DNA of 64,000 bases from a virus. Below, one piece after another: positions 2,643 to 56,280 of the stretch. The stretch lies in the IMG/VR virus record IMGVR_UViG_3300037809_000520, positions 3,259 through 67,258 of that record. One strand, given 5' to 3'. The notes beneath the pieces were generated by a model that worked only from the letters and a program-made list of their open reading frames with translations, had not been told where the DNA came from and did no database searches. A program made the translations under genes and the position numbers. Position 1 is the stretch's first letter; the number at the start of each line of letters is the position of its first letter.

Positions 2643-2674
2643 AAAAAAAGAGGCTTAATTGCTAAGCCCCTTTT
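2643..2674 (-). terminator. Rho-independent terminator after phoH
   Basis: Minus strand GGGGCTTA-GCAAT-TAAGCCTC followed by T7. Confidence 0.7.
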
Positions 2675-2686
2675 AAATGGTTAGAA

Positions 2687-3421
2687 TTATCGCCTAGCTT
2701 TTCCGCTAGTGCCTGAGGAGCCTTTGATAATTCCCCTGCTTTCAGCTTCTTCATAAATTTCAATCAAATTATCCACAATTGGATCTCTATGATTTTGCAT
2801 TAAGGTAATAGAACACATATTTTTTACTTTACGTGCTGCTGAGTATAAAAATCTAAATCCTGATTCTCTTTTTGATTTTAAATCTACTTGATGGTCATCT
2901 CCACAAATAATCATTTTTGATCTTAAGCCTATTCTAGTTGAAATCATCTCCATTTGTTCATGTGTAACATTTTGAGCTTCATCTACAATAATACAAGAAT
3001 CTAAAAATGTTCTTCCTCTCATAAATGCTAGGGGAACAATTTCTATTTTACCACCTTCAATTAATTTTTCTACTTTTACCTTATCATATAAAGCATACAT
3101 ATTTTGGTAAATAGGTTGAATCCAAGGATCCATTTTTTCCCGCAAATCACCAGGTAAGAATCCAATTTCTTCTTTTGATACTGTAGGTCTTGTAATTATA
3201 ATTTTTGAGTAGTGTCTTCGTATGAGACCATCTAATGCAACTTGACAAGCTAAAAGTGTTTTTCCTGATCCTGCTCTTCCAGCTAATAAAGTTAATGTAC
3301 TATCTAATATTTTTTTCTTTGCTTCTTTTTGTTCTTCGTTTAAACTTATTTTAAATTTTATGGGATTCTTCACTATTCTTTGTTTTCTGTGAACTTCGTC
3401 TGTATGGGGTTTTGAAGGCAT
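2687..3421 (-). CDS. phoH: PhoH-like ATPase
   Basis: GRAGSGKT Walker A, IGFLPGDLREKM, FMRGRTF, DEAQN, TRIG..SKMIICGD..QVD. Confidence 0.95.
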   Translation of the reverse strand: MPSKPHTDEVHRKQRIVKNPIKFKISLNEEQKEAKKKILDSTLTLLAGRAGSGKTLLACQVALDGLIRRHYSKIIITRPTVSKEEIGFLPGDLREKMDPWIQPIYQNMYALYDKVKVEKLIEGGKIEIVPLAFMRGRTFLDSCIIVDEAQNVTHEQMEMISTRIGLRSKMIICGDDHQVDLKSKRESGFRFLYSAARKVKNMCSITLMQNHRDPIVDNLIEIYEEAESRGIIKGSSGTSGKARR

Positions 3422-4137
3422 TTTTGAGTGTGGTTTATTTTAATTAATTTGTCAAGACCTGCATTAACATGCATTGTGTCATCTAACATGGTCTCAAACT
3501 CATATCTAGAATCTAAAGGTAGAACTAAATCTACTTGAGAGCCCCATCTAATTAAACTGAATCTTTCGTTTTGGGCACAAAGATCCCCTTGTTGTTTAAA
3601 AGGGGCTATTACATTTACGTCCTCATCGGCAATTTGTATTAAGTGGTATGTGTAATCTAAAGAAGGAACATACACTTGGTTAGACATTCTTTCATTGTAC
3701 TTTAAGTACGCCATGTTATTTGGGTTGATTACTTTATTCAGTATATCCTTCTCTACCGCTAACATGGGTTTATTTGTTGATTCAATAGGTTCTAATCTTT
3801 TATATTTTAATATACCCCCATATGGAATTCTATTAATATGAACATCATAAAATGACATAAATATTCCAATAACTAAAGAGGGTTTATTAAATTCACTATC
3901 ACCCATTACATCTTGGATAGTATAATCGATACCTTTAATTTCTAAAACTTGCTCCCCGGGTTGGACTATTTTTTGATATAATATAGTTCCATCTGAAGGG
4001 CTATAAAAATGTTCATAATCTATAAATGTAGGCCTAATTGGGTCTCTAAAGAAGAAATTATTACTTAATTCTCCAACAGACATTTTAGATAATTCTGCTA
4101 CTTCTCCATTTAACCAATCTTCTAATTTTTCAGCCAT
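3373..4137 (-). CDS. psd: Phosphatidylserine decarboxylase-family pyruvoyl enzyme lacking a membrane anchor
   Basis: FFFRDP.R, SPSDG, IGIFMS.YDVH.NR.P, NER and IRWGSQVDL self-cleavage site. Confidence 0.8.
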   Translation of the reverse strand: MAEKLEDWLNGEVAELSKMSVGELSNNFFFRDPIRPTFIDYEHFYSPSDGTILYQKIVQPGEQVLEIKGIDYTIQDVMGDSEFNKPSLVIGIFMSFYDVHINRIPYGGILKYKRLEPIESTNKPMLAVEKDILNKVINPNNMAYLKYNERMSNQVYVPSLDYTYHLIQIADEDVNVIAPFKQQGDLCAQNERFSLIRWGSQVDLVLPLDSRYEFETMLDDTMHVNAGLDKLIKINHTQKCLQNPIQTKFTENKE

Positions 4138-5051
4138 TATAGGAGGGATTTAAAATGATCAACTCTATTTAAGTGCATTACCATGCAACTTAACATAGCT
4201 CCTGATTTCATATATTCTGATAGATTAAATATTACAGGTTCCATTCCTTCATTAGAACATATTTTTTCTAATGATTCAATTTTATGCTTTTCTCCTTCAT
4301 AAAATTCATCTCCTTTTTTCATTTCGGAAATATTGGAAGCACATAAAATCATATTTCCCAATCTAACAGAATTAGCCATTCCATAAGTTGAATCTTCAGC
4401 ATCTATATCTATTATATTTGTATATTTGCTTATTTGTGCTAATTCTTCTTTATCATATAGTTCAGTGCAAACCATAGTTGAATGTGTATTTAACGGGAAT
4501 ATACTACAATCTAGGTGGTACATATATTCGTCTACCATTTTAACTTTAATAATTTTCATATCAAAATTTTCCTCCATCCAATGATATGTTTTTATGTCTG
4601 ATCTAATATCATACCCACCTATATAAACATTATCCTTTAAATATTTAATATCTGCTTCTCCTTCCCATTTATGGGGGGATATATGAGTTTTATAACCCAT
4701 CTGATTGAAAAATTTTTCACCTACAAATTCTTCACCCTGTCTTGGGGGAGAAGTATAATTAGATAATAGGATATGATTTTCATCTTTAATGTGGGGTAAC
4801 TGTAAGCCTAAATTTGCAACATAAATCAAATCTTGGAAATTACCTTCTGCTGGTAATAAATGGACTAGAGATTGGCCTGCCATAAAATTATACAGATCCA
4901 TAAATTGTTTATATGCTTTTGGTTTGTTTATGGTTAATTCTTTTTCTGACATTTCTTTCATCCAAACATTATTGGGATCATTGGTTGAAAATGTATGTGG
5001 AAAATTCATTACATAACTTTGAATAGGTAACTGTGATGGTGTTTCTTTCAT
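4137..5051 (-). CDS. Amidinotransferase/arginine deiminase-fold hydrolase (DDAH/ArgZ-like)
   Basis: D.IYVAN.G, R.GE, WEGEAD, YHLDC and EYMKSGAMLSC with C-terminal catalytic Cys. Confidence 0.8.
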   Translation of the reverse strand: MKETPSQLPIQSYVMNFPHTFSTNDPNNVWMKEMSEKELTINKPKAYKQFMDLYNFMAGQSLVHLLPAEGNFQDLIYVANLGLQLPHIKDENHILLSNYTSPPRQGEEFVGEKFFNQMGYKTHISPHKWEGEADIKYLKDNVYIGGYDIRSDIKTYHWMEENFDMKIIKVKMVDEYMYHLDCSIFPLNTHSTMVCTELYDKEELAQISKYTNIIDIDAEDSTYGMANSVRLGNMILCASNISEMKKGDEFYEGEKHKIESLEKICSNEGMEPVIFNLSEYMKSGAMLSCMVMHLNRVDHFKSLL

Positions 5052-5078
5052 TTGAAAACTTTTTAATTAATATACAGG

Positions 5079-5086
5079 TATAAATA
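5079..5086 (-). promoter_or_regulatory. Putative late promoter TATTTATA
   Basis: Between capsid-gene terminator and ATG at 5051. Confidence 0.55.
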
Positions 5087-5117
5087 TACTAACTACTAAC
5101 TAAGTATACACTAGTAG

Positions 5118-5145
5118 AAAAAAAAAGCCCCGCTAATGCGGGGCT
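5118..5145 (-). terminator. Rho-independent terminator after major capsid gene
   Basis: AGCCCCGC-ATTA-GCGGGGCT perfect stem followed by long T run. Confidence 0.9.
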
Positions 5146-5169
5146 CTTAATTTATTTAAAATCTATTGA

Positions 5170-6813
5170 TTAAAGAGTGTTTAATCCTTCAACATAAATT
5201 TTACCATAAAATTCCGGGCGTACCACTTTCTTAGCATAACGAGTAAGTAAACCTTTTCTTGGAGTGAAGGTTGCTGGATCGTATACTAAAGGAGTCATGA
5301 TTAACGGAATGTATGGAGCAAATACAGCACCAGCTTCTAAGAACTGACCACCTCTGAATCCCATTAAAATGGTATTTTCAGTCATGTATGGGTTCTTATA
5401 AACAGTGTATCTTGAATTGATAGTACCTGCTTTTTGTACACCAAATGCGTAGCTCATTTTAGCTGCATCACCATCAGAAGTACTAGCAAATCCTGGAATA
5501 GATTCGATAATAGTAGCTACTGTTGGAGAACATACCATGAAATTAGCTCCACCTCTAAGAGTTTTCTGGTGAATTATATTACTTAACTTCTGAACTTTAG
5601 TTCCTAAAGTTTGGAACCATTGTCCTTGTGAGTTATAGAAACCTAAATCTGCATCTACAACACCTGTTGAAGCTAATGATAGGTTGTTCTGTGCACTCCA
5701 GTACTCAGTACCAGCAGCAGCAGATTCGATCAACATATCAAGAATTTCTAAATCAATTTCTAATGAGATATACTCACTCATAATTGAAGTTAATTCAGCT
5801 TCAGCATCCAAAGAATGGTAAGCGTTAAGATCTTGAGCGAACTCAGGAGTCCAAACAGCTTTCAATTTACGAGTCTTAGCAACAATTGCTTCTGACTGCA
5901 TTTGAATGTTGATTTCAGGAATAGTGATTGGATCATTATTACCATTTAAGTTAGTGTTACCTTCTTCAAAATCACCTCTTTGAGCGTCATTTGTTTGCAT
6001 TAAGTACTCAACTTTTAAACCAGTACCAGCTTCAATAACTGATGAACTAACATAAAATTCAATGTTTTCACCATTGATTTTAGTAAATTGTGGGTATTGA
6101 GTTGTTACTGCTGGAAATGTTGTCGTTGCCGAACCTGATAAATAGAAACCTCTAACGGCTCTTTCATCAAAGTTAGGTAATGAAGAAGTTGGAATTGCTA
6201 AACATACAATCTGATCAGTAGCACCGGCAACATAAGATTGAGATACTGAAGAATCAGCATTTAAATCTGTGTACCAATCAACAGAACTAGAAGCTACTGT
6301 ATAAGCAGCAGATTGAGTGTTGTTAATTGAATATCCAAATCTACCAGCACCATAAAGACCACCTGTAGCACCGTTACCAAATGGAGTATTTCCATCAGTA
6401 GCACCATATAGTGAATCACCTGCTGTGAATGGTTGTTTAGTAGTTCCGTATTGGAAATCTAAATAAAATACTAGACCAGAAGGTAGATTCATTGGTTGAA
6501 CCGAAACGAATTCTTTCGCTGCGATTTGACCAAATACCTTTCTTACTAGTGGTAAAGCTACACCCGCCCATTGTGCTCCTGTTCCAGGAGTAAATGTACC
6601 TGCTCCAGGAAGTGGACCACCGGTATTGCTTTCTTCCATAACTAATTGCTTAGCTTGGTTTTCAAGGATCATAGACATATTGTTTTTCTCAGTTTCGTTA
6701 CCGATACCTTCTAACAAGCCTGTCTTGTTCCATTTGTTGGCTAATCTTGCAGCATCACTTTGTAATGACTTGTAAGGATTAGCGCTTTCTAAAAGAGAAT
6801 TTAATTGACTCAT
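5170..6813 (-). CDS. gp23: Major capsid protein, T4 gp23 family
   Basis: VQPM..PSGLVF, AKTRKLKAVWTPEFAQDL.AYH.LDAEAEL, APYIPL, FTPRKGLLTRY. Confidence 0.97.
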   Translation of the reverse strand: MSQLNSLLESANPYKSLQSDAARLANKWNKTGLLEGIGNETEKNNMSMILENQAKQLVMEESNTGGPLPGAGTFTPGTGAQWAGVALPLVRKVFGQIAAKEFVSVQPMNLPSGLVFYLDFQYGTTKQPFTAGDSLYGATDGNTPFGNGATGGLYGAGRFGYSINNTQSAAYTVASSSVDWYTDLNADSSVSQSYVAGATDQIVCLAIPTSSLPNFDERAVRGFYLSGSATTTFPAVTTQYPQFTKINGENIEFYVSSSVIEAGTGLKVEYLMQTNDAQRGDFEEGNTNLNGNNDPITIPEINIQMQSEAIVAKTRKLKAVWTPEFAQDLNAYHSLDAEAELTSIMSEYISLEIDLEILDMLIESAAAGTEYWSAQNNLSLASTGVVDADLGFYNSQGQWFQTLGTKVQKLSNIIHQKTLRGGANFMVCSPTVATIIESIPGFASTSDGDAAKMSYAFGVQKAGTINSRYTVYKNPYMTENTILMGFRGGQFLEAGAVFAPYIPLIMTPLVYDPATFTPRKGLLTRYAKKVVRPEFYGKIYVEGLNTL

Positions 6814-6856: not shown

Positions 6857-8002
6857 TTAGATTATTCCAGCTAATTTTTTAAAGCGTGCGACCATTTCAT
6901 CTGATTCAACAATTGGTTGTTTTTTAGTTGTTTTTGGAGCTGATAAGTTTGAAGCACTACCTTTTGGTCTAATGCTTTCGCTAATAGATTTATTTGTAGT
7001 TTTGGATTTAATACTACCATCGATAGTTTCAAATACAAGTTTTACTTCTTTAATTGTTTCAGCTTTATCAAAAGCACTTAATACTTTAACCTTTTGGTTT
7101 TCTGATAAATTTTTACCGCGGAACACTTTGTTTGTGTAAAGTAACTTAGCATTTAATAAATTAATTTCATTTAATTCAGATCTTAATGTAGCAACAGTTT
7201 GCATTGCTTCATCTAAATCCTTTTTTAATTCATCTTTTGCTTCGTCTATTTCTTCTTTACCTTCATCAATGTCATCTTTAGCTTCAGCTACATCCACAGA
7301 AGTTTCTTCATCATCTTCTACTTCAATTTCTCCGTCTACGTCAACATCAACATCTACATCATCTTCGAATGATTCACCGGCTTCAATTTCACCTGCATTA
7401 ACCATATCTTCGATTACGTCTTCGATAAATTTCTTAAGGTCTTCTTCAGACATATCTTCAAGGTCGATGTCTTCATCTTCCTCACCATCTATGTCTTCTT
7501 TCTCATCTTTTTCACCGTCTAAGTAGCCTTCTTCTTCAGCATCAGTACGTTCGTCCTCTTTCAAGTCCTCTTTTTCGTCCTTAATACCGTCCTTGTAGCC
7601 TTCTTCTTCAGCGTCTGTACAAGCATTTTCTTTAAGATCTTCATCTTTTTCTAATTCTGCTAAAATTTCATCTAAGTTCATATCATCTTCCTCTTTGATT
7701 TTACGCATTTTTTCAGTTTCAGTCTCAGCCTTATTATCAGACTTACGATCGTCACCTTCGCGCTTTTCCTTTTTGGTCATATACTCTTTCTTTTCTGAAA
7801 TCTTATCATCTTTTGCTTCATCTACTTCATCATAAGCTTCATTCACTTCTTCTTCTTTTTCCATTTCTTCTAGTTTACTAGCAAACATGGCTTGAACTTG
7901 AGGTGAGAAAGCTTCTTCTAAAGCGACTTTAGCATTTGCTATTGCAGATTCTTTGACTGCTTTAGCATCGGCGATAGCCTCTCGTAAAAAGTTTCTATTC
8001 AT
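6857..8002 (-). CDS. Prohead core scaffolding protein
   Basis: Highly acidic coiled-coil protein between protease and capsid genes; C-terminal RFKKLAGII. Confidence 0.8.
   Translation of the reverse strand: MNRNFLREAIADAKAVKESAIANAKVALEEAFSPQVQAMFASKLEEMEKEEEVNEAYDEVDEAKDDKISEKKEYMTKKEKREGDDRKSDNKAETETEKMRKIKEEDDMNLDEILAELEKDEDLKENACTDAEEEGYKDGIKDEKEDLKEDERTDAEEEGYLDGEKDEKEDIDGEEDEDIDLEDMSEEDLKKFIEDVIEDMVNAGEIEAGESFEDDVDVDVDVDGEIEVEDDEETSVDVAEAKDDIDEGKEEIDEAKDELKKDLDEAMQTVATLRSELNEINLLNAKLLYTNKVFRGKNLSENQKVKVLSAFDKAETIKEVKLVFETIDGSIKSKTTNKSISESIRPKGSASNLSAPKTTKKQPIVESDEMVARFKKLAGII
7493..7640 (-). repeat. 72-nt (24-aa) tandem duplication inside scaffold gene
   Basis: TDAEEEGY.DG.KDEKED twice; gtagccttcttcttcagc at 7523 and 7595. 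Confidence 0.85.
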
Positions 8003-8192: not shown

Positions 8193-8795
8193 TTATATTA
8201 TTGGACATTGTCCATGTGAGCATAATATCTCACTTAATATACTATTTACATTCTTATATTTGTCTTGTGCTTTAAATTCTTTGCTTTCTCTTACTAAATG
8301 CATAAATGAATCTGGGTTGGAAGGAGTTGAAACAAAATCCCAACACAATAATTCAAAATCATCTTGAACTTCCATCAATTCACCTTTTTGTTCTAATGAA
8401 CCCATTCCTCTTGATGATACCCCAACAGTAATACCATTTTCAACTAATGCTTTAAGTATATTTCCATTTGGTGTTGGTAGAATTTCAATTTTACCCATTA
8501 CATTATCACCATCCCACCACATATCAGAAACATTATGTGATACATTTTGAAGATTTATTACTGATGATTCTGGGTGGTCTAATTCCCCCATAGCTCTGTG
8601 TTCATCAACTAATACTCTATATTTGTCAATTTCTCTATCCCATAATTCTTTAGAATAGTATCTACCATTTCCATTTTTTACTTCAGCAGTAGCTAGTACT
8701 CCCTCAACTAAAGGTAAACCCCTTTTCGAACGAGATTCATTTAGAGTTACTCCCTTAGGTTTAAATACGTGTGTTTCTATTAATAATTGACTCAT
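8193..8795 (-). CDS. gp21: Prohead protease, T4 gp21 family
   Basis: N.NGRYY, GELDHP, VSH, GVSSRGMGS, DFELLCWDFVSTPS. Confidence 0.95.
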   Translation of the reverse strand: MSQLLIETHVFKPKGVTLNESRSKRGLPLVEGVLATAEVKNGNGRYYSKELWDREIDKYRVLVDEHRAMGELDHPESSVINLQNVSHNVSDMWWDGDNVMGKIEILPTPNGNILKALVENGITVGVSSRGMGSLEQKGELMEVQDDFELLCWDFVSTPSNPDSFMHLVRESKEFKAQDKYKNVNSILSEILCSHGQCPII

Positions 8796-12011: not shown

Positions 12012-12042
12012 CAATACTTATTTTTTTATAAATATACTAAAA

Positions 12043-16509: not shown

Positions 16510-17040
16510 TCACGAAAAAATTGATTGTTTAACTAATTTTGTACGTTCTTCTGTTGATCCCTTAATCTCAATTAAATTTTTAATTTTATGTCTATATCTA
16601 ATAATTAATAATTGGATAGATTCATCAATTTTTTTTCTATAATCTGCATCTGTTTCTCGTACACCATTATTTTCAATTTCTACTCCTTCAGGAGAAACAT
16701 AAAATATATAATCATATTCATCTAACATATTACTTGCAAATGAACAAAAATCATCTGCTTCCCCATAATACATTGAAGTTGATTGTTTAGCAAAAGCCAT
16801 TACATCTATAATTGTTCTATCTGTTATAATATTATCTTGCATTAATTCACTAGCTCTTTCAGCTAAAAATACAGCTTGACCCTTTACGGTTGAGTCTGTA
16901 TTTAAAGGAATACTCATTTCCATTAAATATTTTGAACGTTCAGTTCTAAATTTATATAATTGAAATTCTGGTAATTTAGCTAAAGCGTTAACTAAAGTTG
17001 TTTTACCTACTGACATTGTACCACAAAAACCTATTTTCAT
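16510..17040 (-). CDS. P-loop nucleotide kinase (AAA_28/NadR-like)
   Basis: MKIGFCGTMSVGKTT, ITDRTIID, YDYIFY, ENNGVR. Confidence 0.75.
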   Translation of the reverse strand: MKIGFCGTMSVGKTTLVNALAKLPEFQLYKFRTERSKYLMEMSIPLNTDSTVKGQAVFLAERASELMQDNIITDRTIIDVMAFAKQSTSMYYGEADDFCSFASNMLDEYDYIFYVSPEGVEIENNGVRETDADYRKKIDESIQLLIIRYRHKIKNLIEIKGSTEERTKLVKQSIFS

Positions 17041-17041
17041 A

Positions 17042-17449
17042 TTAAAACGGTAAATTTAAAGGATCTAATTGGGAAGATCCCATTCCCACTCTATAACTAT
17101 CACTGTCGAAATGTTGTGTTGATACCTCAAATATACAACTTCCTTCTTCAAGAGCCAACATTTGGTGGGGTTGACCAGGCATTAAATGGATGCAATCCCC
17201 TTCTGTTACTTCAACTGTTCTTTGTTCAGCATTTTCAGTATCAATATATTTGTATAAGAATTTTCCTTTAGAAATATACCATGCTTCATCTTTTAGGAGA
17301 TGATAATGCATTGAAAATGATTTATCTTTTTTAAATACTAAAAGTTTTCCACAGTATTTTTCATTATTAATAATCCACAATTCATGACCCCATGCTTTTT
17401 CATGAATTTCTCCTTTGTAAGGCATTGCCTCTAATGTATGATCCCTCAT
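17042..17449 (-). CDS. Cupin-fold protein (sugar isomerase-like)
   Basis: K.WG.ELWI, SMHYH..KDE.WY, PG.PH, FEVST.H. Confidence 0.8.
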   Translation of the reverse strand: MRDHTLEAMPYKGEIHEKAWGHELWIINNEKYCGKLLVFKKDKSFSMHYHLLKDEAWYISKGKFLYKYIDTENAEQRTVEVTEGDCIHLMPGQPHQMLALEEGSCIFEVSTQHFDSDSYRVGMGSSQLDPLNLPF

Positions 17450-17450
17450 A

Positions 17451-17723
17451 TTAATGTCTTGATGTTCCTTTACCAGCTGTTGTTTTATACCAAGGTAATC
17501 CCTCTCGCTCTTTCATTATATATTTAAAATCTTCTTCAGAATATTCAATACCACTTAAAAAATATCCTTTTTTAAATTCTGAATTTTTGGAAATTGGAAC
17601 TATTGCTGGTGAATCATATCTGTGATGTTTAAAATGTTCCTCACCTTCCATTTTAATTAAATAATGTCTTGCACCTTTGTATTTAATTACTTTTTCTTCA
17701 TAATATTTTTCTTTCTTTTTCAT
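17451..17723 (-). CDS. Hypothetical protein
   Basis: Tightly packed ORF in operon; HRYDSPA...YFLSG. Confidence 0.6.
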   Translation of the reverse strand: MKKKEKYYEEKVIKYKGARHYLIKMEGEEHFKHHRYDSPAIVPISKNSEFKKGYFLSGIEYSEEDFKYIMKEREGLPWYKTTAGKGTSRH

Positions 17724-17728
17724 AATTT

Positions 17729-19072
17729 TTATTTTAATAATTGTTCTCCTACTAATGTTCCTTGTGCCCCCGATACTGTAATACCTCTGGCACTTAAAGC
17801 GTCACCCACAAAATGTACATTCGGATATTTTGTTAAACTTAAATCATTATAATTAACTAGGGGTTCTGGTGATAGATATTTTACTTCTGGGATGTAAATT
17901 CCCCAATCATCTTTAAGTGTTGGAAATACTTTTTTCATATCCTCAATGAAATCTTCTATATAATCATAATAACCTTTAAATGATTTTTTAACTATATCTA
18001 AAGATTTAGTGGGCATAGCATCAACTAAATCACCTTCACTTGTCATTCCTCTTTCACGTGATGGGCTATAATATAAACCCGAATTAGCTTTACGAGCATA
18101 TCTACCAATACCTTTACTACAATCCATCCATTGTGAATTTACTAATTTAACTAATTCTCTAGACCAATCAAATGGTTTATCAATGCCTTGAATTTCCATT
18201 AAAATCCCAAAATTAGTCATATTATTTCTATGTTCTTCTCCTTTTTTAGCATGTCCATTGTAGCTAACATCTCCATACGTTTGCTCAACGGCAACATATG
18301 CTGCATTGTTGTTTGTACAGAAAGAACGTAGTGATACTCCTTTGTCTTCGAATTTACGATATAACTTAAAATCATAACTTACATCAATTAGTTTTTGGAA
18401 GTGGTTTTGTGGTGCTTCAAATCGAACACCTATTTGTACTGGCTTTGGTTCTGTAGGAAGATCATATTTTTCAGCTAATTTCTTACCGAAGTCAATTCCT
18501 GATTTGCCAACACCAAATATAAGTTTATCATATGATAAGGTGAAATTATCTACTTCACTAGCATTGGTTACCACTATTTGTGAATCAAATTTAATATCGG
18601 TTACTTTTTCTTCCCATCTAAATTCTACACCACCATCTACTAAATAATTATACCAATTTTTACCTATTTCATGTAAGTAATCTGTACCTACGTGCCATAC
18701 AGGGAATAAGCGTAAGCCAAAATAGGGTTTAATAAAATCTGGTTCTGCTTGGGGGTCTGAGCATTGTACTTCCTCAGGCTTGGGATGGAATCTTTTAAAA
18801 TTATTAATTACTTGATCAAATAATTCCATTGCTTTTTCATCTCCTGTGTATTTTGATAATTGACCACCAATGGATGTATGGTAAGTTAATTTACCATCAG
18901 ACCAACCACCTGCTCCTAAGAAACCAGTCATTACTTCTTCAGGTTTTCTATCATATGGGTTTTTACCCATATCAATAATAGTGATATTACCTTTAAAGTT
19001 GTTATCTACAAGTTTTGTAGCGGCATTTACTCCTGCTACACCTGCTCCTACAATTACTACATTTTTACTCAT
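17729..19072 (-). CDS. FAD-dependent oxidoreductase
   Basis: IVGAGVAG Rossmann motif, GAGGWSDGKL, IGVRFE, RSFC, FVGD...ARGI. Confidence 0.85.
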   Translation of the reverse strand: MSKNVVIVGAGVAGVNAATKLVDNNFKGNITIIDMGKNPYDRKPEEVMTGFLGAGGWSDGKLTYHTSIGGQLSKYTGDEKAMELFDQVINNFKRFHPKPEEVQCSDPQAEPDFIKPYFGLRLFPVWHVGTDYLHEIGKNWYNYLVDGGVEFRWEEKVTDIKFDSQIVVTNASEVDNFTLSYDKLIFGVGKSGIDFGKKLAEKYDLPTEPKPVQIGVRFEAPQNHFQKLIDVSYDFKLYRKFEDKGVSLRSFCTNNNAAYVAVEQTYGDVSYNGHAKKGEEHRNNMTNFGILMEIQGIDKPFDWSRELVKLVNSQWMDCSKGIGRYARKANSGLYYSPSRERGMTSEGDLVDAMPTKSLDIVKKSFKGYYDYIEDFIEDMKKVFPTLKDDWGIYIPEVKYLSPEPLVNYNDLSLTKYPNVHFVGDALSARGITVSGAQGTLVGEQLLK

Positions 19073-31280: not shown

Positions 31281-31310
31281 TAGTTTTAGTTATAAATATA
31301 TAAAAATATG

Positions 31311-31886: not shown

Positions 31887-32095
31887 AAAACTAATTTATT
31901 TAATTCTTTAATAATAACTTGTATATCATCTTTTGATAAATTACCACCACTATACCATTGTTTTATTTGGTTTGCTAATAAATTAACATCTACTTTTATA
32001 GGCAAATCATTGGGGGTAGTAATTAGTGGGTTAGTACTTCTGGACCTTAATGATCCTTCTTTATATCCTTTTGATAAAGTATTTGATTTATTCAT
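31883..32095 (-). CDS. Small hypothetical protein
   Basis: ATGA overlaps with both neighbours. Confidence 0.55.
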   Translation of the reverse strand: MNKSNTLSKGYKEGSLRSRSTNPLITTPNDLPIKVDVNLLANQIKQWYSGGNLSKDDIQVIIKELNKLVL

Positions 32096-34650
32096 AATCC
32101 TAATGCTTTAAGTTGGTTGATTGTATCCTGGGTTGATGTATGTAATATACCAATACCCCCAGCTTCAATCCATTGTTCTATATTTGATTTTCTATCATCA
32201 ATTAAAATATGGTTAGGTTCAGCATAATTCTTTTTATTATAAGCTTGGGCTAATGTTAATTTAACTCCAGGCATGTTATTTCTAACCCATAATCTTTTTC
32301 CTAATCTTGAGGTTTGTGATCTTGATGGGGATGATAGTAATTCTACATCATAATCTTTAATATAATTCCAATAGTCTTTACCATCTTCCATCCAAGGCAT
32401 CCCTACCCAAAATCCAACTTTACCTTTACCATCAATTAATTCCCAAAATCCATCTTCCCCAAACTTTTTTTCATATTCTCTGGGTGGTATTCCTTTAGAG
32501 TACTTTTCAAATGATTTATCAAAATCTGTTAATACACCATCCATATCTGAATATATTTTATATTCCATAGGGGGTGAAGATACAACCTCTTCTTCAGGTA
32601 TCAAAACTCCTTCAGCAATTTCTCTAGCAAATTGATTTAAACCAAATGGATCTTTACCTAATTTGGGATCAAATCCCTGTTTTTCATCTAAACTATCAGT
32701 CCAATTTCTAAATGTCATTGTACCTTTTAAATTAGCTTCAGCTTCAATATCATTTAACTCATCATCTTCTTGAGTATTTGTTGTTGTAATATTACCTAAT
32801 CTACCTTCTAGATTTTGGGTATGATGAACCATTTCATGGGAAAATGAACGTACAATATCTTTTGGATGTCTGCCTTCAGTGTATAATACAATTGTTTGAG
32901 AATTTGGATCATAATAAGCAGTTTTACCTAAAAACTCTTGAGCATTACTACGATCACCATTTATGAATTTTAAATTAGGTAAGGGTTGAATATTCATCCC
33001 CTTATCTATCATATGCTTAGTTAATTTAGCTATCTCTTTTTTAATATCTATATTTTGAGAATATGAAGCATTTTCATTTAATGGTTTTCCTCTTTTAGAA
33101 TATCTTCCTTCTACTTCAAAATTATTACTTAATGTAGACAATACCTCTTGTGTTTTTTGGGTTTCTCTATATAATCCCCCTGTCCAGTGATCTTTAACTG
33201 TTGAAAAACCCCAAGGCCCTCCTGCTTCTTTAATTTTATTCTCAACCCACCCACTTAAATCATAATAATTAGATTTTTGTTTAATTATAACAAATGTTTC
33301 TCCTTTTTCAAGTAAATCCTGGTCTGTTAATTGATCCATAAAATTTTTTGCTCCCTCTAAAGTTTTTGAAAATGAGATATTTTTTCCATTATAATTTGTC
33401 CAAATATATTCTCTTAAATCTGGGATTTTGGTTGCATTCTTAATGGATAAAATTCTATATATTGTTCCAAAATCTTTATAGCCTAATTGTTTTAATTTTA
33501 AAACAAATACTCTATTAATTGAAGAACTATCATGTACTCCTCCTTTTCCTAACCAATCTTCAACATATTTATCTAAATCTATTTCTTCATTTAAGTTTTC
33601 TTTTAAAACTGTTCCTTCAGGAAGTTCTAATGAATCAAAAAAATCTTGAGCTATTTTTAATAGTTTTTCTTTTATTTCTGGTTTTAAATTAAGATCATCC
33701 CAAACATCTTTTACTAATGTATCTTGTATATCAAAACTATCGATTACATCTTTTTCAATATTTTCTTGAAGAGCGATTACAGGGGTAGATGTTTTAAAAT
33801 CTTTTTTACGCATTACTGTTTTTGCATACATTTCAATATCATCATCAGTAACATTTATAGCAAATGGTATGTTTATGTTATTATTAAAATCCTTAACAAC
33901 AGCATCAAAATCATCATCTATTTTAGATAGTGGTTTACCATGTTTTTTATGTAAACGTTTAAACATCCCTATAAGTTCAGCTACTGTAATTGGTTTTTTA
34001 TTTCTTTTATCATTTAATCTATCTAAAAAATGCCTAGTAAATTCAATATCAATACCCAATTTATTAAATAATCCATCAGCATATTTTTCAATTGAGTCTA
34101 ATTGGGGTTTAGTAATTTCTTCTTTAATAATTGGTCTTAGAATATTAAATACATCTTCTTTTTCTTTATCATCTAATTCATCTGGTAGGAATGGTGCTAA
34201 TTCATCGGATGATACTTTGGCTGCTTTTCTAGCATTGGTACCACTCATACCTTTATCTTGAGTAATTTGTACTTTTACTTTCATATTAGGGTAAGCTGAT
34301 TCTATATTTTTAGTTCTATTTTCAATATCTTCTAAATCATCATCTCTTCCTTCTCTTCCTCCTATAATAAAATAAACCTCATCTTCAGGATTATTTTTCC
34401 CTAAACGAATAATATCACCAATTGGTGATTCAGCAGGCTCAATCTTAACTTTCATGGGTAAATATTTTTTAAATATATCCCAAATTAAAATAGCTTCAGC
34501 TTGACTTACCCCATTTCTTTCCTTACTTCCAACATAGATAATAAATTCATCTATTTCAGGGAGAGATTTTAATGCTTTTTTTACTACCTCTAAATGACCT
34601 TTAGTAGGTGGTTTAAAACCACCTCCGTATGCTGCTATTACTTTACTCAT
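32092..34650 (-). CDS. Multidomain polyprotein: HxGH nucleotidyltransferase, unknown domain, ART-like, zincin, HAD nucleotidase
   Basis: GGGFKPPTKGH; FTRHFLDR; IYR..ISFSK..QEV; HEMVHHTQ..EAEA; DMDGVL..ILIDD. Confidence 0.75.
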   Translation of the reverse strand: MSKVIAAYGGGFKPPTKGHLEVVKKALKSLPEIDEFIIYVGSKERNGVSQAEAILIWDIFKKYLPMKVKIEPAESPIGDIIRLGKNNPEDEVYFIIGGREGRDDDLEDIENRTKNIESAYPNMKVKVQITQDKGMSGTNARKAAKVSSDELAPFLPDELDDKEKEDVFNILRPIIKEEITKPQLDSIEKYADGLFNKLGIDIEFTRHFLDRLNDKRNKKPITVAELIGMFKRLHKKHGKPLSKIDDDFDAVVKDFNNNINIPFAINVTDDDIEMYAKTVMRKKDFKTSTPVIALQENIEKDVIDSFDIQDTLVKDVWDDLNLKPEIKEKLLKIAQDFFDSLELPEGTVLKENLNEEIDLDKYVEDWLGKGGVHDSSSINRVFVLKLKQLGYKDFGTIYRILSIKNATKIPDLREYIWTNYNGKNISFSKTLEGAKNFMDQLTDQDLLEKGETFVIIKQKSNYYDLSGWVENKIKEAGGPWGFSTVKDHWTGGLYRETQKTQEVLSTLSNNFEVEGRYSKRGKPLNENASYSQNIDIKKEIAKLTKHMIDKGMNIQPLPNLKFINGDRSNAQEFLGKTAYYDPNSQTIVLYTEGRHPKDIVRSFSHEMVHHTQNLEGRLGNITTTNTQEDDELNDIEAEANLKGTMTFRNWTDSLDEKQGFDPKLGKDPFGLNQFAREIAEGVLIPEEEVVSSPPMEYKIYSDMDGVLTDFDKSFEKYSKGIPPREYEKKFGEDGFWELIDGKGKVGFWVGMPWMEDGKDYWNYIKDYDVELLSSPSRSQTSRLGKRLWVRNNMPGVKLTLAQAYNKKNYAEPNHILIDDRKSNIEQWIEAGGIGILHTSTQDTINQLKALGL

Positions 34651-40364: not shown

Positions 40365-40421
40365 TTGTTATATTATTTTAATTATAAATATACGTTTTTT
40401 TGTTTTTTATTCCAAGTTATA

Positions 40422-43400
40422 TTACTCTATTGGATATTTTTTAGTATCATTATCTTCATCGGCTCTGAAAGCATTTTTAGCACTTAATTGATTTATTATA
40501 GTTTGTACATTTCTTTTTTGCTGAGCTGAAAAATCATTAGGGATTAAATATCCTGATGGTGATAGGGTTTTAACTCCTTCTGAGCCTGTTGGGGCTGTTT
40601 GGTATATTACTACTCTATCATCAGCTTCAATTCTTCTTCTAAGAGTAAAATTAAAAATTTGACCTGATGGAATAGGAATATCTAAGGTTCTTGGATCTGG
40701 GTGTACCATTACTTTATCAAAAGTATGGGCAGATGCAGTCATTCTTACAAGACTTGGTCCTCTTACCGAAACCATTGATGATTTCATAGTATCCCCATAT
40801 CCATCTGGAGGGAATATAGAGTTTTCATATTCATCATTTGGACCATTATCTGTAATAGTAAAAGTTTGAGTGTATAATCCACCCACAATAGAATTAGGTC
40901 CTACTGAGTTGTAATCTACTCTGATTTCATCTCCTACTTGAAATAATATAGGTTGTTGGAAATCTTCAAAATTTGTAACATTATCATCACTGTTATTAGT
41001 AGTAAGTTGAAAATCTTCATAAACATAATTAGAAGGATTTGCAAAAAATGGCTCTTTAACTAATTGAATAGTATCTGCAGATCCTCCTGTATTTTTTATA
41101 TTATTTGGTATTCCCGGGAGGACTACAGCTACCCCACTTATAGAAGCTGTAGAATAGATACTTCTTGAAACATATTGGTTAAAAGTATTAACCAATGCTA
41201 ATCCTCTACCAGCATAACATATTGATGTTCCTAAATCTACACTTGCACTAACCCCGAAACTTGATGACATTATTAATGATGCTCCCATCAAATATAATGA
41301 AGAATCTGTACTTCCTGTTAATAGTGAAAAAGCAGATTGGGATTGGACCGTTGAAAATAGTACACTAGCAGTTAAATAATATGATGATGATGGTAATGTA
41401 ATTGTATTAATAGCTGTCCCCGCAAGCCCATACATCCTTGACCAACTTGAACTTACAAAACTTTGTGTAGTTGCATGGTTATTTTTTTCAATTTGGTTAG
41501 TTATTATATTTTGATATTCCATTGATCCTTGATATATCTGACTTTCTCCTACTTTAAGTGAAGTATAATTAATAGTAGCAGAAGAACCTGATTTAGATAT
41601 TTTTCCTTGGTTATAGGCTACTAATGCTTTTCTATCAACTTCAAATGTACTTCTAACTTCTGTTAAATTTTCACCACTTCCATCAACTTTAATTACAACT
41701 GGGTTTTCTGGGGCTTTTTCCCCTTGCACACTATCTAAAGGACACTCAATAAGTTGATCAATATTAAAAGTATAACTACCCCATAATTCATTGGATTGTT
41801 TAGATGTTCTAAAATGAGCAAAATAAATAGGATGTTTTGCAATAGTATTAACTTCTACATTTATTGAAGGCATTGAACCTGGGAGTGAATCCCCACCATA
41901 AACTGGGCTTTGAGCATAAGTATAAACTACTGGCGCACTGGATTTATTATGAACTAATATTCCATTAGCATAATAATTATGGTTATTACTAACACTTGAT
42001 AAATAGTATACAGTAGTTAATTTTATTTCGGTTGTTATCGATGAAACTATAATATCATCCCCTTTTATATCTTGACAGATATCATTAACTTCTATTTTAG
42101 ATGCTTTTACCCATCCTTTTTCTTTCACATAAAATGGGTGTTCTTCAGTAGTATTAATTATATTACCATCATTAAAAGTTATAATTATTATTGACTCGGC
42201 TTCATGAGATGATACATCACCAACAATTCCTTCTTCATTCTTATTATCAAGTTCATTATAAGTTATAATACTTTCACCCTTTACTACATCTTCAATATTT
42301 TTAGTACTACCATTAAATAGTGATATTTGGGTTCCAGGAGTGAAGCAGAGAACAAAAGTTTGGAGAGATTGATTGGATCCCGATAATAAAGTACCAGGTA
42401 CCCCCCCATTTAAATAAGCAATTTCACTTCCTGATGGTGTATATGAATTATAATTAGCACTTTGTAAAGTACTCCCCACATATCTTGGAAGAATTGATGA
42501 TTTTTGAGTATAAAAACTATCAGGTATATCTGCTTTAATAGCTGATCCTGATATAATAGGTATTACATTTGAAGGTACACCTGATGATCCTGTTGAAGAA
42601 CCTCCATCAAATTCTGCTACTTGTAAGTAAGTATTAGCTCTACTTCCAGTAATATTATTAATTAAAGGGTTAAATGGAGAGTTATTAAATATTGTTAAAT
42701 TTGGAAGTTGAGGTGATGGAGTTATATTTTGTAAACCTTGGTTTGAGGTTGGAGTAAATATAGGGGTTGATGAACCACTTAATGCTCTACTTTGTAGTTG
42801 ATTATAAACCCATCCTTGTCCTACTCCTGATGTGTTTGAAAAAGAAATTTTCCCATCAATAACTGTTAAATTTTGACTAAAATAATTACCTACTAAACCA
42901 TATATATCTTCTGTTGTTGGTGTGCCTGTATAATTTGGAATTTCATATGTAAATTGTTCATTAAATGCTAAAGTATCTGTATTATCTACAGGATTATTAT
43001 CAGAATCATAACTAATATTATTAAATGCCGTTATTATTGGGGCATAATTACCAAAATCTCCATAAGATCCTGTCCATGTAGTTCCTACAAAAGTTGCACT
43101 ACCACTTCCGGGTTTTGGGGCTGAGCCTTTAATAATCCAACCTAAAGCTTCTGAAGAAATATAATCAAAATTAGACATATATATAGGGACTGTAATTGGT
43201 CCTGTAAGAGCATCTTCATATCCTCCACCCTGTGGTATATTTTGATCTAATCTAATAACTCTAGCATTGTTTGTTGAGGGATTATTAAACCAATATTTTG
43301 TTAGTCCATATGCATTTGATCCTATATTTCCATATGCTGTAGCTGTGGATGCTACCTGTTTAGTAATTATATCATTTCCCCCAAAGAAGGATGAAATTAA

Positions 43401-46400
43401 AATATTACTATCTAAATTTCCCAATAATCCTGTTTGATCAAAATCAACAGGACCTGTTATAGGATCAAAAAAAGTATTATTAATTGATCCTGATATATCA
43501 AATTTAAGATAAGGTCCTACATCATTAGGAACAATTTGTCCATCTTGAATTCCAAACATACCTGATGCTGAAACTGGTGGGTGAGGAATTGCCTGTAGAG
43601 GAAGTAAATTATTATCATCATATCCTAATAAACCTGCGGGTTCATAAGATTGTGCTGCAGTATTTCCTAATACATCCATTAGAGTAGGAAGAATTAATCC
43701 TACAACCCAAAAATTATGGTTATCTAAATGAGATTGTTGAATGAAAATAGATCCTGTTAAAGTGGAGTTTGGATTATTTGCTTCCCAATTATTAAAATCA
43801 TCTTGCAATTCATCTAATTTACCGTATTCTTTTTGATTTACAACTAAATTAAATGAAAATGAAGGATAAGTATTAATTGGAGTTCCATAAGAGTTACTCC
43901 ATTGTCCTTTACTTGAGGTAATTGCTAATTTATAAGATATATCATTTATTTCAGCTGTTGTGTAGGGATTATCTAACAGTGATTGGGTTGTAACTATTAT
44001 TTCACTTCCGCTAAATTCTCCATTATAAAATTCATCCTGTGATTTATGTATTTCATAAACACTACCAGATATAGTTTCATTTCTTACAATGTAAGATTGT
44101 GTATTAAAGGAATTCCATATACTTGATGAATATGGAATTGGGGTTGTAGGAGATCCTATAAAATCATTATTTGTGGCAGCAACTGAAGCTAAAGGTGTGA
44201 AATAAATATATGATAAATTAACAGATTTTGGGGTAGCAGGATCTGACATTAAATCTAAACCTTTAACCCAAAATGATATGTCTTCTTCTGGCAGCATTTC
44301 ATAATACGATGTGCTTGCAGGAGTGTTAATTGGAGTCAATGAAGCTGAGGATATAATATCTGTGCCTATAATACCTCTTTTTGAAGATGAAACAGCAAAT
44401 TCAAACCCCTCATCATATCCTAAGAAATTAGTTGTGTTAGAATTAAAAAATTTAAATCTTGTTTTTAAAGGTTGTTTTAATCTAATACCTTGTGTGGGTC
44501 CTGAACCAAAATTTGAATCTACTATATCTCCATAACTATTTATTACTCCACCAGCTCTAATAAGGTTAGTGTATTGACTAGGGATATTAGTGGGTGATGT
44601 TTGTGAGTAAAACAAGAAATAAGCAGATTGAGTTACTTCAACATTATAAGGATCTAATACCCCACCTGTTCCTCCTCCTATAGTAGCTACATCAATACTT
44701 CCGGTAATTTCTAAATCTCTATATGAAATGGGGCTATTTATTCCTTCAGCTGTTGATTGACCCCCTACTACGGACCCCGTTTCTGGTGTGTAAGCTATTA
44801 TAGTATTTGGATTAACTTTTACAGGGACGCGGCGATTGCGCTCCAACATATGTTGTTTAATTATAACACCTGTAGTTACGCTAGTACGTGCTGGAACATA
44901 TGATTTAATGGCTTTAAATAATGAATTATCAAAATATTTAATTAATCTTAAATAATCCCAAACATCACCTTCTGTATATTTTTTAAAATATTCGTTTGCA
45001 ATTTGTCTTAATTTTGGATAATAAGACTCTGTTGAATCATAAGCAAATCTAGGATCTGCTAACACATCAGAAATAACACCATATCCATAAGTTGCTATTA
45101 TATCATCATTAACCTCGTCTTGAGGTGAAAAACCTACTTCTAGACTTGTTATATCCTCAGTATAACTCTGACTTATTAAATAATCTTGATCTATACTTCT
45201 ATATTTAGATAATACTGTACCATAATCCTCACCATCATTAACTTGAATTTTATTTGAAATTCTATTTCTAATACCAATTGCTGGTTGATCTAAAAAGTAA
45301 GTTTCTACATTAGGTTTACTATATGTGTAGATTGATGCTGCCTCATATCCTATAAAATCATAACTTGAAGTTAAAGCACTAGTAGCAGGATCAATAAATG
45401 ATTGGGTAAATATCATAGGTGCTGAGCCTGTTATTGCAGGGTGTGAAGATGATATTAATGTTGTAAAAGATTGACTTATAGATGATGTAAATTTATATTC
45501 TAGCTCATTACCCAAAGGAGCTCTAAAATTAACTATATCAAATGAAGATTCAGACCCTGTAACATTATTACCCTCAACAGACTCTGGATTCATTACAAAA
45601 TCATTAAAGGTTTCTTTTGAAATATTATTTGAATAATATCTAAATTCTTGAAAGGATCCTGAAAATATTTTAGCTCCTTCATTTAATACCTCAGACATTA
45701 CATCTGAACCAGACACATATCCTCCTACATAAACTCCATCAATATCAGATACCCCAAATCTATTCCATGATTCATTTATAGAAGGTGAACTTGCTGAAGG
45801 ATCATCATATATTGTACTATTATATGTTCCCCCTCCATATCCTGAATTAAAAGCTACATTAGCTGAACTCATACTCACTGATCCTGACCACCCTAATGAA
45901 TTACCATCCCAACCATCTACTTGCTTATTAGCCGCAAATAAAGTATAGGTAGTAGCATCCGCACTATCGTTAGTATGAGTATCTCTTTGTAATAATACAC
46001 TCCACCAACCCCCATCAAAGAAGGGTAAGGAAATATCATTTGATATTTGTACTCCTCCATCTGCTGTTGAAGCAGACATATAAAATCTTAATTTACCATA
46101 ATTGTAATAATCACTAAAACTAGATCCTGAATATGATCCTGATGGTTGATCTTCATAAAATAAACCAATCCCCCAATCCATTTGTTTGTCATTAGTTCCA
46201 TTTGATTTTTTAACAGCTAATGATTGACTATAAAATTTACCCCCATAACTTGATGAAGGATGACCTGTAGTTTTAAATCTAAAAGCAACACCATCTGGTA
46301 CTATATACTCATTGTCCGCTATTTTGTTACGTTGTAATGGCATCCATGGTACTTTAACCGATGAACTTGCCATATATTGACTAGCAACTGGGGTATACGC

Positions 46401-56246: not shown

Positions 56247-56280
56247 AATGTTTTTGATTATAAATATATATTTTTTAAAT

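Follow-up and report, generated by a model that had tools for sequence, protein, structure and literature searches.

A predicted ArgZ-type hydrolase and a soluble pyruvoyl decarboxylase form a conserved gene pair in phages and bacteria: a possible route from arginine to putrescine

Introduction

Viral genes named psd after phosphatidylserine decarboxylase (PSD) are taken, in a catalogue of ocean auxiliary metabolic genes, as genes of phosphatidylethanolamine biosynthesis (PMC11360552). The PSD fold has also been reused for free amino acids, the precedents being PsiD, the L-tryptophan decarboxylase of Psilocybe, and, closer to the present case, an arginine decarboxylase of Aspergillus oryzae whose solved structures include bound arginine and agmatine (PMC12904898), from which it follows that the fold can handle basic amino acids. 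Here we describe a gene pair in a 64-kb stretch of DNA from a marine phage (positions 3,259 to 67,258 of IMG/VR record IMGVR_UViG_3300037809_000520; hereafter the window), which was taken out of a 67-kb viral contig estimated to be 41% complete. The pair encodes a guanidino hydrolase resembling ArgZ and AgrE of cyanobacteria and a soluble PSD-fold decarboxylase, and it lies directly behind the major capsid gene. An earlier note on this DNA, made from the sequence alone and already pointing to such reuse of the PSD fold, had suggested a two-step route from arginine via ornithine to putrescine or a related amine, with host lipid remodelling as the alternative.

Results

The hydrolase and decarboxylase genes are tightly linked

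In the window the hydrolase gene (4137-5051, minus strand, 304 aa) and the gene of the decarboxylase proenzyme (3373-4137, minus strand, 254 aa) have base 4137 in common, which belongs to the stop codon of the former and the start codon of the latter (TAATG). The earlier note had made co-occurrence of the two genes in relatives the test of its proposal, and the pair was found together in nearly all loci of both sets that we surveyed. IMG/VR holds 220 stretches that encode a relative of the decarboxylase, and among the best 80 of these (71-94% identity) the hydrolase gene lies directly upstream in 78, the two misses being contigs that begin inside or at the decarboxylase gene. In all 78 relatives with both genes the hydrolase match stops two bases ahead of the decarboxylase match, a spacing which, judged from match positions and not from the junction letters, fits the TAATG junction of the window.

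The second set, drawn from species-representative genomes, comprises 58 loci, one of which is a phage contig (L085) that is near-identical to the window and was binned in a Flavobacteriales metagenome-assembled genome (MAG). A hydrolase with 38-54% identity to that of the window adjoins the decarboxylase in 56 of the 58, spread over at least six phyla; the two exceptions are a locus from Latescibacterota and a contig that breaks off within the gene. Carriers include many Verrucomicrobiales, Gammaproteobacteria, Sulfurimonadaceae and other Campylobacterota, Latescibacterota, Gaiellaceae and Cryosericota, as well as the Pseudonocardiaceae Saccharothrix, Saccharopolyspora, Streptoalloteichus and Actinosynnema, and others. 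Among annotated phage records, the hydrolase is present in 46 (40 from Campylobacter phages) and the decarboxylase in 45 (39 from Campylobacter phages), and the same 6 Bacteroides thetaiotaomicron phages are included in both lists. The two genes are about 43 kb apart in Fletchervirus NCTC12673, and in Bacteroides phage SJC03 they are adjacent in the gene order of the window. Most bacterial loci have the decarboxylase before the hydrolase and the phage lineage of the window has the opposite order, which means that inherited synteny alone does not account for the linkage. Taken together, these results make the pair a conserved two-enzyme module, of which no description was found in full-text searches of literature outside subscription journals.

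The hydrolase is closest to ArgZ and AgrE

The hydrolase, which has a pentein fold, gave no Pfam match even at an E-value of 10. Its NCBIfam matches were to arginine dihydrolase (1.4e-23), dimethylargininase (4.2e-23) and bifunctional ArgZ (4e-22), all below the curated cut-offs, and the protein stands outside the curated arginine-dihydrolase equivalog. When a profile of 33 members of the hydrolase family was compared with the PDB, only AgrE (Alr4995) and ArgZ (Sll1336) were matched, at 1.9e-27. The AlphaFold model, with a predicted local distance difference test (pLDDT) of 91.6, likewise gave AgrE and ArgZ as the best Foldseek matches (E 1e-20; query TM-score, TMq, 0.79-0.81; root-mean-square deviation, rmsd, 2.5-2.8 Å), with a target TM-score (TMt) of 0.88 to the N-terminal domain of ArgZ. 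The next match was dimethylarginine dimethylaminohydrolase (DDAH; E 1e-11), and agmatine deiminase, succinylarginine dihydrolase and true amidinotransferases trailed at about 1e-9 to 1e-10. The ArgZ/AgrE assignment of the earlier note is thus borne out by sequence family, PDB profile and predicted structure alike, and the word amidinotransferase that it also used is a fold name only: an identity as an amidinotransferase of the AGAT, StrB1 or SxtG type was rejected, with SxtG and AGAT far weaker matches than ArgZ and AgrE (E 1e-10 to 5e-9, rmsd 5.6-6.8 Å).

Eight residues (D74, N80, R104, E107, R150, H179, D181 and C289) are invariant across the 33 sequences. C289 aligns with C264 of ArgZ/AgrE, the residue mutated in PDB entries with C264S and C264A; N80 aligns with N71 of ArgZ, a column in which the N71S mutant entry has Ser; and H179 sits in YHLD. 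We take the Cys, the His and the Asn of the TAN motif to have the roles of their counterparts in the ArgZ/AgrE structures, the Asn presumably being needed for the second hydrolysis step. The arginines matching R104 and R150 are, we assume, those that grip the alpha-carboxylate of the substrate in DDAH-type enzymes, and their invariance would favour an amino acid as substrate and hydrolysis before decarboxylation. The protein ends with the hydrolase domain and has no C-terminal ornithine cyclodeaminase-type domain. Sequence and model together thus describe a predicted ArgZ-type guanidino hydrolase with intact active-site residues.

The decarboxylase belongs to a soluble branch of the PSD fold

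The decarboxylase matched Pfam PF02666 (PS_Dcarbxylase) with 80 bits against a cut-off of 22 and fell below the cut-off of each of 15 NCBIfam PSD models (best 71.2 bits versus 183); the ESM Atlas returned only 'PSD family' clusters. In an alignment with Escherichia coli PSD, D49 (in SPxDG) falls on the PADG motif and H100 on the DYH motif. D49 is invariant in 7 sequences, and each of H100, G199 and S200 is kept in at least 90% of a set of 60, which agrees with the earlier statement that the His and Gly-Ser self-cleavage motifs are kept; G199-S200 is the expected cleavage site. This site reads GSQ in 56 of 57 family members, compared with GST or GSR in canonical copies. Foldseek comparison of the model (pLDDT 93.1) gave E. 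coli PSD, PsiD and the A. oryzae arginine decarboxylase with TMq 0.45-0.51 for all three, E. coli PSD having the lowest E-values and also the best profile match. PsiD reached a TMq of 0.51 and a profile match of E 0.09-0.12 at 11-12% identity, and entry 9jf5 of the A. oryzae enzyme was matched at 14% identity (Foldseek E 5e-3, TMq 0.49, rmsd 5.4).

Several observations set these proteins apart from housekeeping PSD. No hydrophobic segment was found in the window protein, in which the highest 19-residue Kyte-Doolittle mean is 0.95; the corresponding peak has a median of 1.06 and a maximum of 1.41 in the module family, where it stays below the level of transmembrane segments throughout, versus a median of 1.56 in canonical PSDs. 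A quick tree search, in which long branches were flagged (chiefly L164, probably a mis-called canonical open reading frame, ORF), placed 57 module sequences apart from 12 canonical PSDs that were taken from these same carriers, the split having an SH-like approximate likelihood ratio (SH-aLRT) support of 98. A canonical PSD is also held by 12 of 14 carrier genomes, scoring 152-222 bits versus 84-96 bits for the module copy. Because it forms a separate clade with low hydropathy alongside a canonical PSD in these genomes, the decarboxylase is a paralogous soluble branch of the PSD fold and not the housekeeping lipid enzyme. The hydrophilic, soluble character that had been read from the sequence therefore stands; the accompanying statement that the family usually has a membrane anchor before FFRDP is right only in part, since the canonical PSDs that we compared do not all have an N-terminal anchor and their most hydrophobic stretch is often elsewhere.

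Some decarboxylase homologues are longer. In P0122 the PSD-fold domain is interrupted by an intein that contains a LAGLIDADG endonuclease, in P0126 the homologue is joined to the anti-CBASS protein Acb1, and P0125 (1114 aa) runs on into VapB-like and ADP-ribosyltransferase domains; these metagenome gene calls may be true fusions or merged gene calls. A search for fusions of the pair found no similarity to the hydrolase in the long homologues P0128 and P0136. Prediction of a complex between hydrolase and decarboxylase gave runs scoring 0.63, 0.02 and 0.25, which speak neither for nor against an interaction.

A three-gene unit behind the capsid gene

The analysis of the window (G+C about 31%) used 61 ORFs with a minimum length of 90 aa, each of them on the minus strand. 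In DNA comparison its closest cultured relative was Flavobacterium phage immuto, which matched 37% of a 4.3-kb query at 72% identity. Directly upstream of the pair lies the gene of a gp23-type major capsid protein (5170-6813, minus strand; Pfam Gp23, 258 bits). It is preceded by the gene of a 381-aa acidic scaffold-like protein (6857-8002, minus strand), situated between the capsid gene and a prohead protease gene (8193-8795, minus strand). The 381-aa protein is extremely acidic, rich in D and E, repetitive and without a family match, and is presumably the scaffold. Downstream, the pair is followed by the gene of a 244-aa PhoH-like ATPase (2687-3421, minus strand; PF02562, 212 bits versus a cut-off of 27), after which come, on the same strand, a 438-aa protein and a head-tail adaptor-like protein. 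The decarboxylase ORF and the longest version of the PhoH ORF have 49 nt in common (3373-3421), in a poorly conserved part of the decarboxylase tail that is modelled with low confidence (pLDDT 60-65), and in many relatives the decarboxylase match stops ahead of PhoH. Both overlaps described earlier, TAATG at 4137 and decarboxylase with phoH, were thus recovered, with the ORFs on the minus strand.

The unit is framed by two terminator-like hairpins on the minus strand, one at the boundary with the capsid gene (5123..5148; an 11-pair stem with 7 G-C pairs, then a T run) and one after PhoH (2646..2674; a 13-pair stem, then a T run). Between 2400 and 7000, 8 terminator-like sites were seen versus 2.0 expected. 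The promoter-like motif TATATTTATA lies on the minus strand at 5079..5088, 28 nt ahead of the hydrolase start codon, so that the upstream motif and the downstream terminator of the earlier note were both located. This 10-mer has 6 copies in the window, all on the coding strand, versus 2.5 expected, and 6 copies were reached in 3 of 100 shuffles; it is more frequent than chance. All copies (minus strand; 2632-2641, 5079-5088, 12027-12036, 31291-31300, 40383-40392 and 56259-56268) lie 11 to 28 nt ahead of a start codon, the one at 2632-2641 coming next after the hairpin at 2674-2646. The 8-mer TATTTATA, the core of the motif, has 18 coding-strand copies, 14 of them intergenic and 11 situated 9-33 nt ahead of a start codon, including those of the portal gene and of baseplate-region genes. 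The motif is often found just 3' of a terminator-like hairpin, and its reverse complement gives the T4 late motif TATAAATA. We regard it as a candidate phage promoter. The three genes therefore form a unit that is bounded by terminators and stands behind a promoter-like element common to structural genes, and this motif would suggest late expression of the unit.

RNA-library contigs identical to the window were found in 4 seawater runs, where they cover parts of the hydrolase gene (e.g. 4687-5060), parts of the decarboxylase gene (e.g. 3418-3714) and most of the capsid gene. These contigs carry no information on strand, ends or level, may include DNA carry-over, and give no meaning to the stretch without cover (2708-3169).

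PhoH follows the pair in 79 of the 80 related viral loci and in none of the 58 genome loci. In the stretches that we read of NCTC12673 and SJC03, no PhoH was found beside either gene, by annotation or by match. In immuto, two different genes fill the slot between the capsid gene and PhoH. The absence from the genome loci and the different slot genes of immuto make PhoH a neighbour by lineage and not a partner; its supposed coupling to the pair is confined to this phage lineage.

Neighbours of the pair in bacteria and other phages

Beside the pair, 39 of 56 genome loci have a MATE efflux gene, whose nearest named NCBIfam relatives export secondary metabolites or drugs. In Proteobacteria and Campylobacterota this gene comes after the pair and is read in the same direction; in Verrucomicrobiales it is convergent. 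Eleven Verrucomicrobiota loci have a nearby periplasmic binding protein with PotD and PotF as its best NCBIfam matches (E 2e-53 to 7e-56, below the curated cut-off). In the one such locus that was scanned (L098:11314-15191), the PotD/PotF-like protein is followed by a Cache-HAMP hybrid histidine kinase, an arrangement that resembles NspS and MbaA, with which Vibrio senses polyamines. In 11 genome loci there is a neighbour family of about 890 aa; clustering of neighbours over 57 genome loci revealed no third universal gene and no other family in more than 11 loci. An Rfam scan of 9 bacterial loci found one tRNA only and no riboswitch.

In SJC03, genes for a dCTP-deaminase/dUTPase-like protein and an IMPDH/GMP-reductase-domain protein come directly after the pair (L001:9810-11292), and the latter gene is present in all 6 DAC/SJC phages examined, which raises the question of whether these phages alter the guanine nucleotide pool. 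The complete relative G001 (164 kb) has, outside the part corresponding to the window, genes for PTPS/QueD, a radical SAM enzyme, a phosphoribosyltransferase and GTP cyclohydrolase I (L145:536-5405). Some 10 kb beyond this cluster it encodes a DUF1599 'nucleotide modification associated' protein (L145:15692-16099); the scan of G001 reported no QueC family. These genes suggest 7-deazaguanine DNA modification like that of the related immuto (PMC10516641).

Other features of the window

A single 2665-aa ORF without a PHROG match at E 1e-5 occupies 40422-48419 (minus strand), upstream of baseplate-like genes, and may encode a giant protein of the tail or of a fibre. The large terminase gene is directly followed, at 16510-19072 (minus strand), by genes for a thymidylate-kinase-like protein, a protein matching the PHROG 'cysteine dioxygenase' and a 447-aa 'dehydrogenase', a trio of metabolic genes inside the packaging region. 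At 32092-34650 (minus strand) lies the gene of an 852-aa protein with a 5'-3' deoxyribonucleotidase match at its C-terminus and two PHROGs of unknown function in its middle.

Discussion

The tight linkage of the two genes across phyla, in either order, together with their complementary chemistries, suggests that the enzymes should act sequentially on one small molecule. On the grounds of sequence and predicted structure, we put forward conversion of arginine to ornithine and then to putrescine, hydrolysis coming first, as a plausible reading that stops a little short of probable. The hydrolase would most likely convert L-arginine to L-ornithine with release of two ammonia and one CO2; the decarboxylase proenzyme would cleave itself at Gly199-Ser200 to form a pyruvoyl group, and the cleaved enzyme would then decarboxylate the free amino acid to putrescine. 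Hydrolysis first is favoured by the invariance of R104 and R150, given the role that we assume for them, and by the poor structural match of agmatine deiminase; a polyamine product would suit both the PotD/F-like neighbour and the exporter. In the phage lineage of the window, the pair sits in a variable slot between the capsid gene and PhoH, and the terminators and the promoter-like motif common to structural genes suggest, for this lineage only, that it would be made together with the virion proteins. From this setting we infer what the phage might gain, namely the conversion of host arginine into a DNA-condensing polycation and two usable ammonia per arginine. A wider form of the proposal, which we regard as tentative and rather doubtful, is that the module is a previously unrecognised, self-contained arginine-to-putrescine route, an arginine dihydrolase followed by a PSD-fold ornithine decarboxylase, and that horizontal transfer has carried it into six or more bacterial phyla and into large phages of three unrelated groups. 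Its product would be exported by the bacteria and sensed by Verrucomicrobiota as an extracellular polyamine signal, and the phages would strip host arginine for polycation and ammonia while virions are being made.

A number of results weigh against a route from arginine to putrescine. The hydrolase scores 83.5 bits against a cut-off of 450 for Arg_dihydro and 78.2 against 1025 for bifunctional ArgZ, and the similar TMq of the decarboxylase to lipid, tryptophan and arginine members of the PSD fold means that the fold alone does not give the substrate. A census of whether the module fills a gap in 14 carrier genomes, mostly MAGs of unstated completeness, had a mixed result. Agmatine deiminase is held by at least 5 of them, 4 of which also have an alanine-racemase-fold decarboxylase whose open frame, at about 609-637 aa, is as long as that of SpeA should be, although these frames were not identified as SpeA; where both are present, the module is not needed for putrescine. 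Only 4 of the 14, which count in favour of the route, look as if they lack other ways to putrescine: they have no more than one alanine-racemase-fold decarboxylase and neither an agmatine deiminase nor an aspartate-aminotransferase-fold (AAT-fold) decarboxylase over the cut-off. Matches to the spermidine synthase domain, many of them weak, occur in all 14. On the phage side, no other polyamine gene was found among the 106 ORFs scanned in G001 outside the part corresponding to the window, and PHROGs named none among the 61 ORFs of the window. In Campylobacter and Bacteroides phages, moreover, the genes sit among replication and nucleotide-metabolism genes and not among structural ones, so that late expression for packaging is not general. 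For the MATE exporter, a secreted special metabolite is as good a candidate as putrescine or a better one, and the patchy distribution, taken with the exporter, would also fit such a product.

These last points lead to the idea that the pair makes or degrades some other small nitrogen compound, such as a secreted amine or guanidine or an arginine analogue, and serves host takeover or counter-defence in phages. The relatives of the exporter found at 39 of 56 loci, the inclusion of antibiotic-producing Pseudonocardiaceae among the scattered carriers, the several carriers that already have agmatine deiminase (most of them also the long alanine-racemase-fold decarboxylase), and the decarboxylase homologues fused to Acb1 or an ADP-ribosyltransferase domain all speak for it. 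The fused forms, however, are single metagenome gene calls and possibly adjacent genes read together, no further biosynthetic gene is conserved beside the pair in the 57 genome loci, and the ArgZ motifs are all kept, including the Asn that we take to be needed for the second hydrolysis step; on balance we think this idea somewhat unlikely. The same two enzymes could also act in the reverse order, with a PSD-fold arginine decarboxylase making agmatine and an ArgZ-like dihydrolase or deiminase converting it to putrescine or N-carbamoylputrescine. Such a decarboxylase exists in Ao-ADC1 of A. oryzae (PMC12904898), its entry 9jf5 is among the Foldseek matches of the decarboxylase, and the decarboxylase gene comes first in most bacterial loci. 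We nevertheless consider this order unlikely: the module clade has WGSQ and not the GGST of Ao-ADC1, and the C. jejuni agmatine deiminase is a far weaker structural match than ArgZ (E 2e-9 versus 1e-20). The invariant R104 and R150, in the role that we presume for them, also argue for a substrate that still has its carboxylate.

Two further explanations depart from arginine altogether. The decarboxylase might be a true PSD that remodels host membrane lipids, the hydrolase then being functionally unrelated. Pfam and NCBIfam do assign the PSD family, E. coli PSD has the lowest Foldseek E-values, and as PSD of the E. coli type is peripheral and not transmembrane, lipid use would be compatible with the missing transmembrane helix. 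Against this stand scores far below every NCBIfam PSD cut-off, a separate clade with GSQ and low hydropathy throughout, a canonical PSD alongside in 12 of 14 carrier genomes, and the lack of any pssA-type family reported among the 106 ORFs scanned in G001; the near-obligate pairing with an arginine-type hydrolase would also be left unexplained. The lipid alternative is weakened accordingly, and we hold it to be very improbable. Slighter still is the chance that the pair serves DNA base replacement or nucleotide metabolism, one of the uses for which the earlier note had allowed. Inteins are typical of replication-related genes, and one decarboxylase homologue has an intein. Fletchervirus phages, which carry the pair, replace deoxyguanosine (dG) by deoxyinosine (dI) (PMC13091555), and in SJC03 the pair stands between dUTPase-like genes, two genes ahead of the IMPDH/GMP-reductase-domain protein. 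A GMP-reductase partner, present in SJC03, was however rejected: no Campylobacter phage is among the 41 phage records that match such a gene, and it is also missing from 4 near-complete relatives of the window (0 of 5 records of this lineage searched). A second form of the idea, that the pair replaces 7-deazaguanine modification, was grounded on the presence of DpdA3 in Firehammervirus and immuto and of the pair in Fletchervirus and this lineage; it was rejected as well, because G001 has GTP cyclohydrolase I, PTPS/QueD and a radical SAM enzyme, and the pair is therefore no alternative to that system. The link of the pair to base modification thus failed on both counts. Nor are conserved nucleotide genes found beside the pair in bacterial loci, and the mechanism of pyruvoyl decarboxylases calls for a carboxylate with a neighbouring primary amine, a feature that no nucleotide base has.

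Should the arginine-to-putrescine route via ornithine be correct, the decarboxylase would be a fourth kind of pyruvoyl amino-acid decarboxylase in polyamine biosynthesis, after the archaeal, SpeD-derived and fungal Ao-ADC1 enzymes, and the first with a PSD fold in bacteria and phages, and the route would be the first to be fed by an ArgZ-type dihydrolase. Hundreds of marine viral psd genes that are read as lipid auxiliary genes (PMC11360552) would then need re-annotation. The annotations 'phosphatidylserine decarboxylase' and 'amidinotransferase' in Campylobacter biocontrol phages would receive a joint explanation; the main text of the paper on the NCTC12673 screen (PMC13091555) does not contain the words biosynthesis, amidinotransferase, decarboxylase, gp044 or gp085.

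Among described systems, the polyamine enzymes known from phages (SpeD-derived pyruvoyl ornithine and arginine decarboxylases (ODC/ADC), arginase, homospermidine synthase and others; PMC9992855, PNAS 2023) would serve the same end, in which the virus itself provides for putrescine-type polyamines, made from arginine or ornithine with the help of pyruvoyl chemistry. The SpeD-derived enzymes have the fold of S-adenosylmethionine decarboxylase (AdoMetDC), whereas the module decarboxylase has the PSD fold, and in the main text of that paper, supplements excluded, the words phosphatidylserine, dihydrolase, amidinotransferase and Campylobacter do not occur. With E. coli Psd (PDB 6L06/7CNW) the module decarboxylase has the fold and the Asp-His-Ser positions in common, and it differs in its separate clade, in GSQ for GST and in its lower hydropathy. 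Ao-ADC1 (PDB 9JER, 9JF5) likewise has the PF02666 fold, takes a free basic amino acid and forms its pyruvoyl group by Gly-Ser self-cleavage (PMC12904898), as would be expected of the module decarboxylase. It is a fungal protein of 483 aa with a long N-terminal helical region and GGST where the module clade has WGSQ, and it has no known pairing with a guanidino hydrolase. PsiD, which acts on a free amino acid with the same fold, is also fungal, is larger and has an aromatic substrate. The closest relatives of the hydrolase, in sequence and in structure, are ArgZ (Sll1336) and AgrE (Alr4995) of cyanobacteria, which have the same fold and the same Cys, His, Asp, Asn and two Arg positions; at about 20% identity to these, the phage hydrolase differs in being a stand-alone protein that is paired with a decarboxylase.

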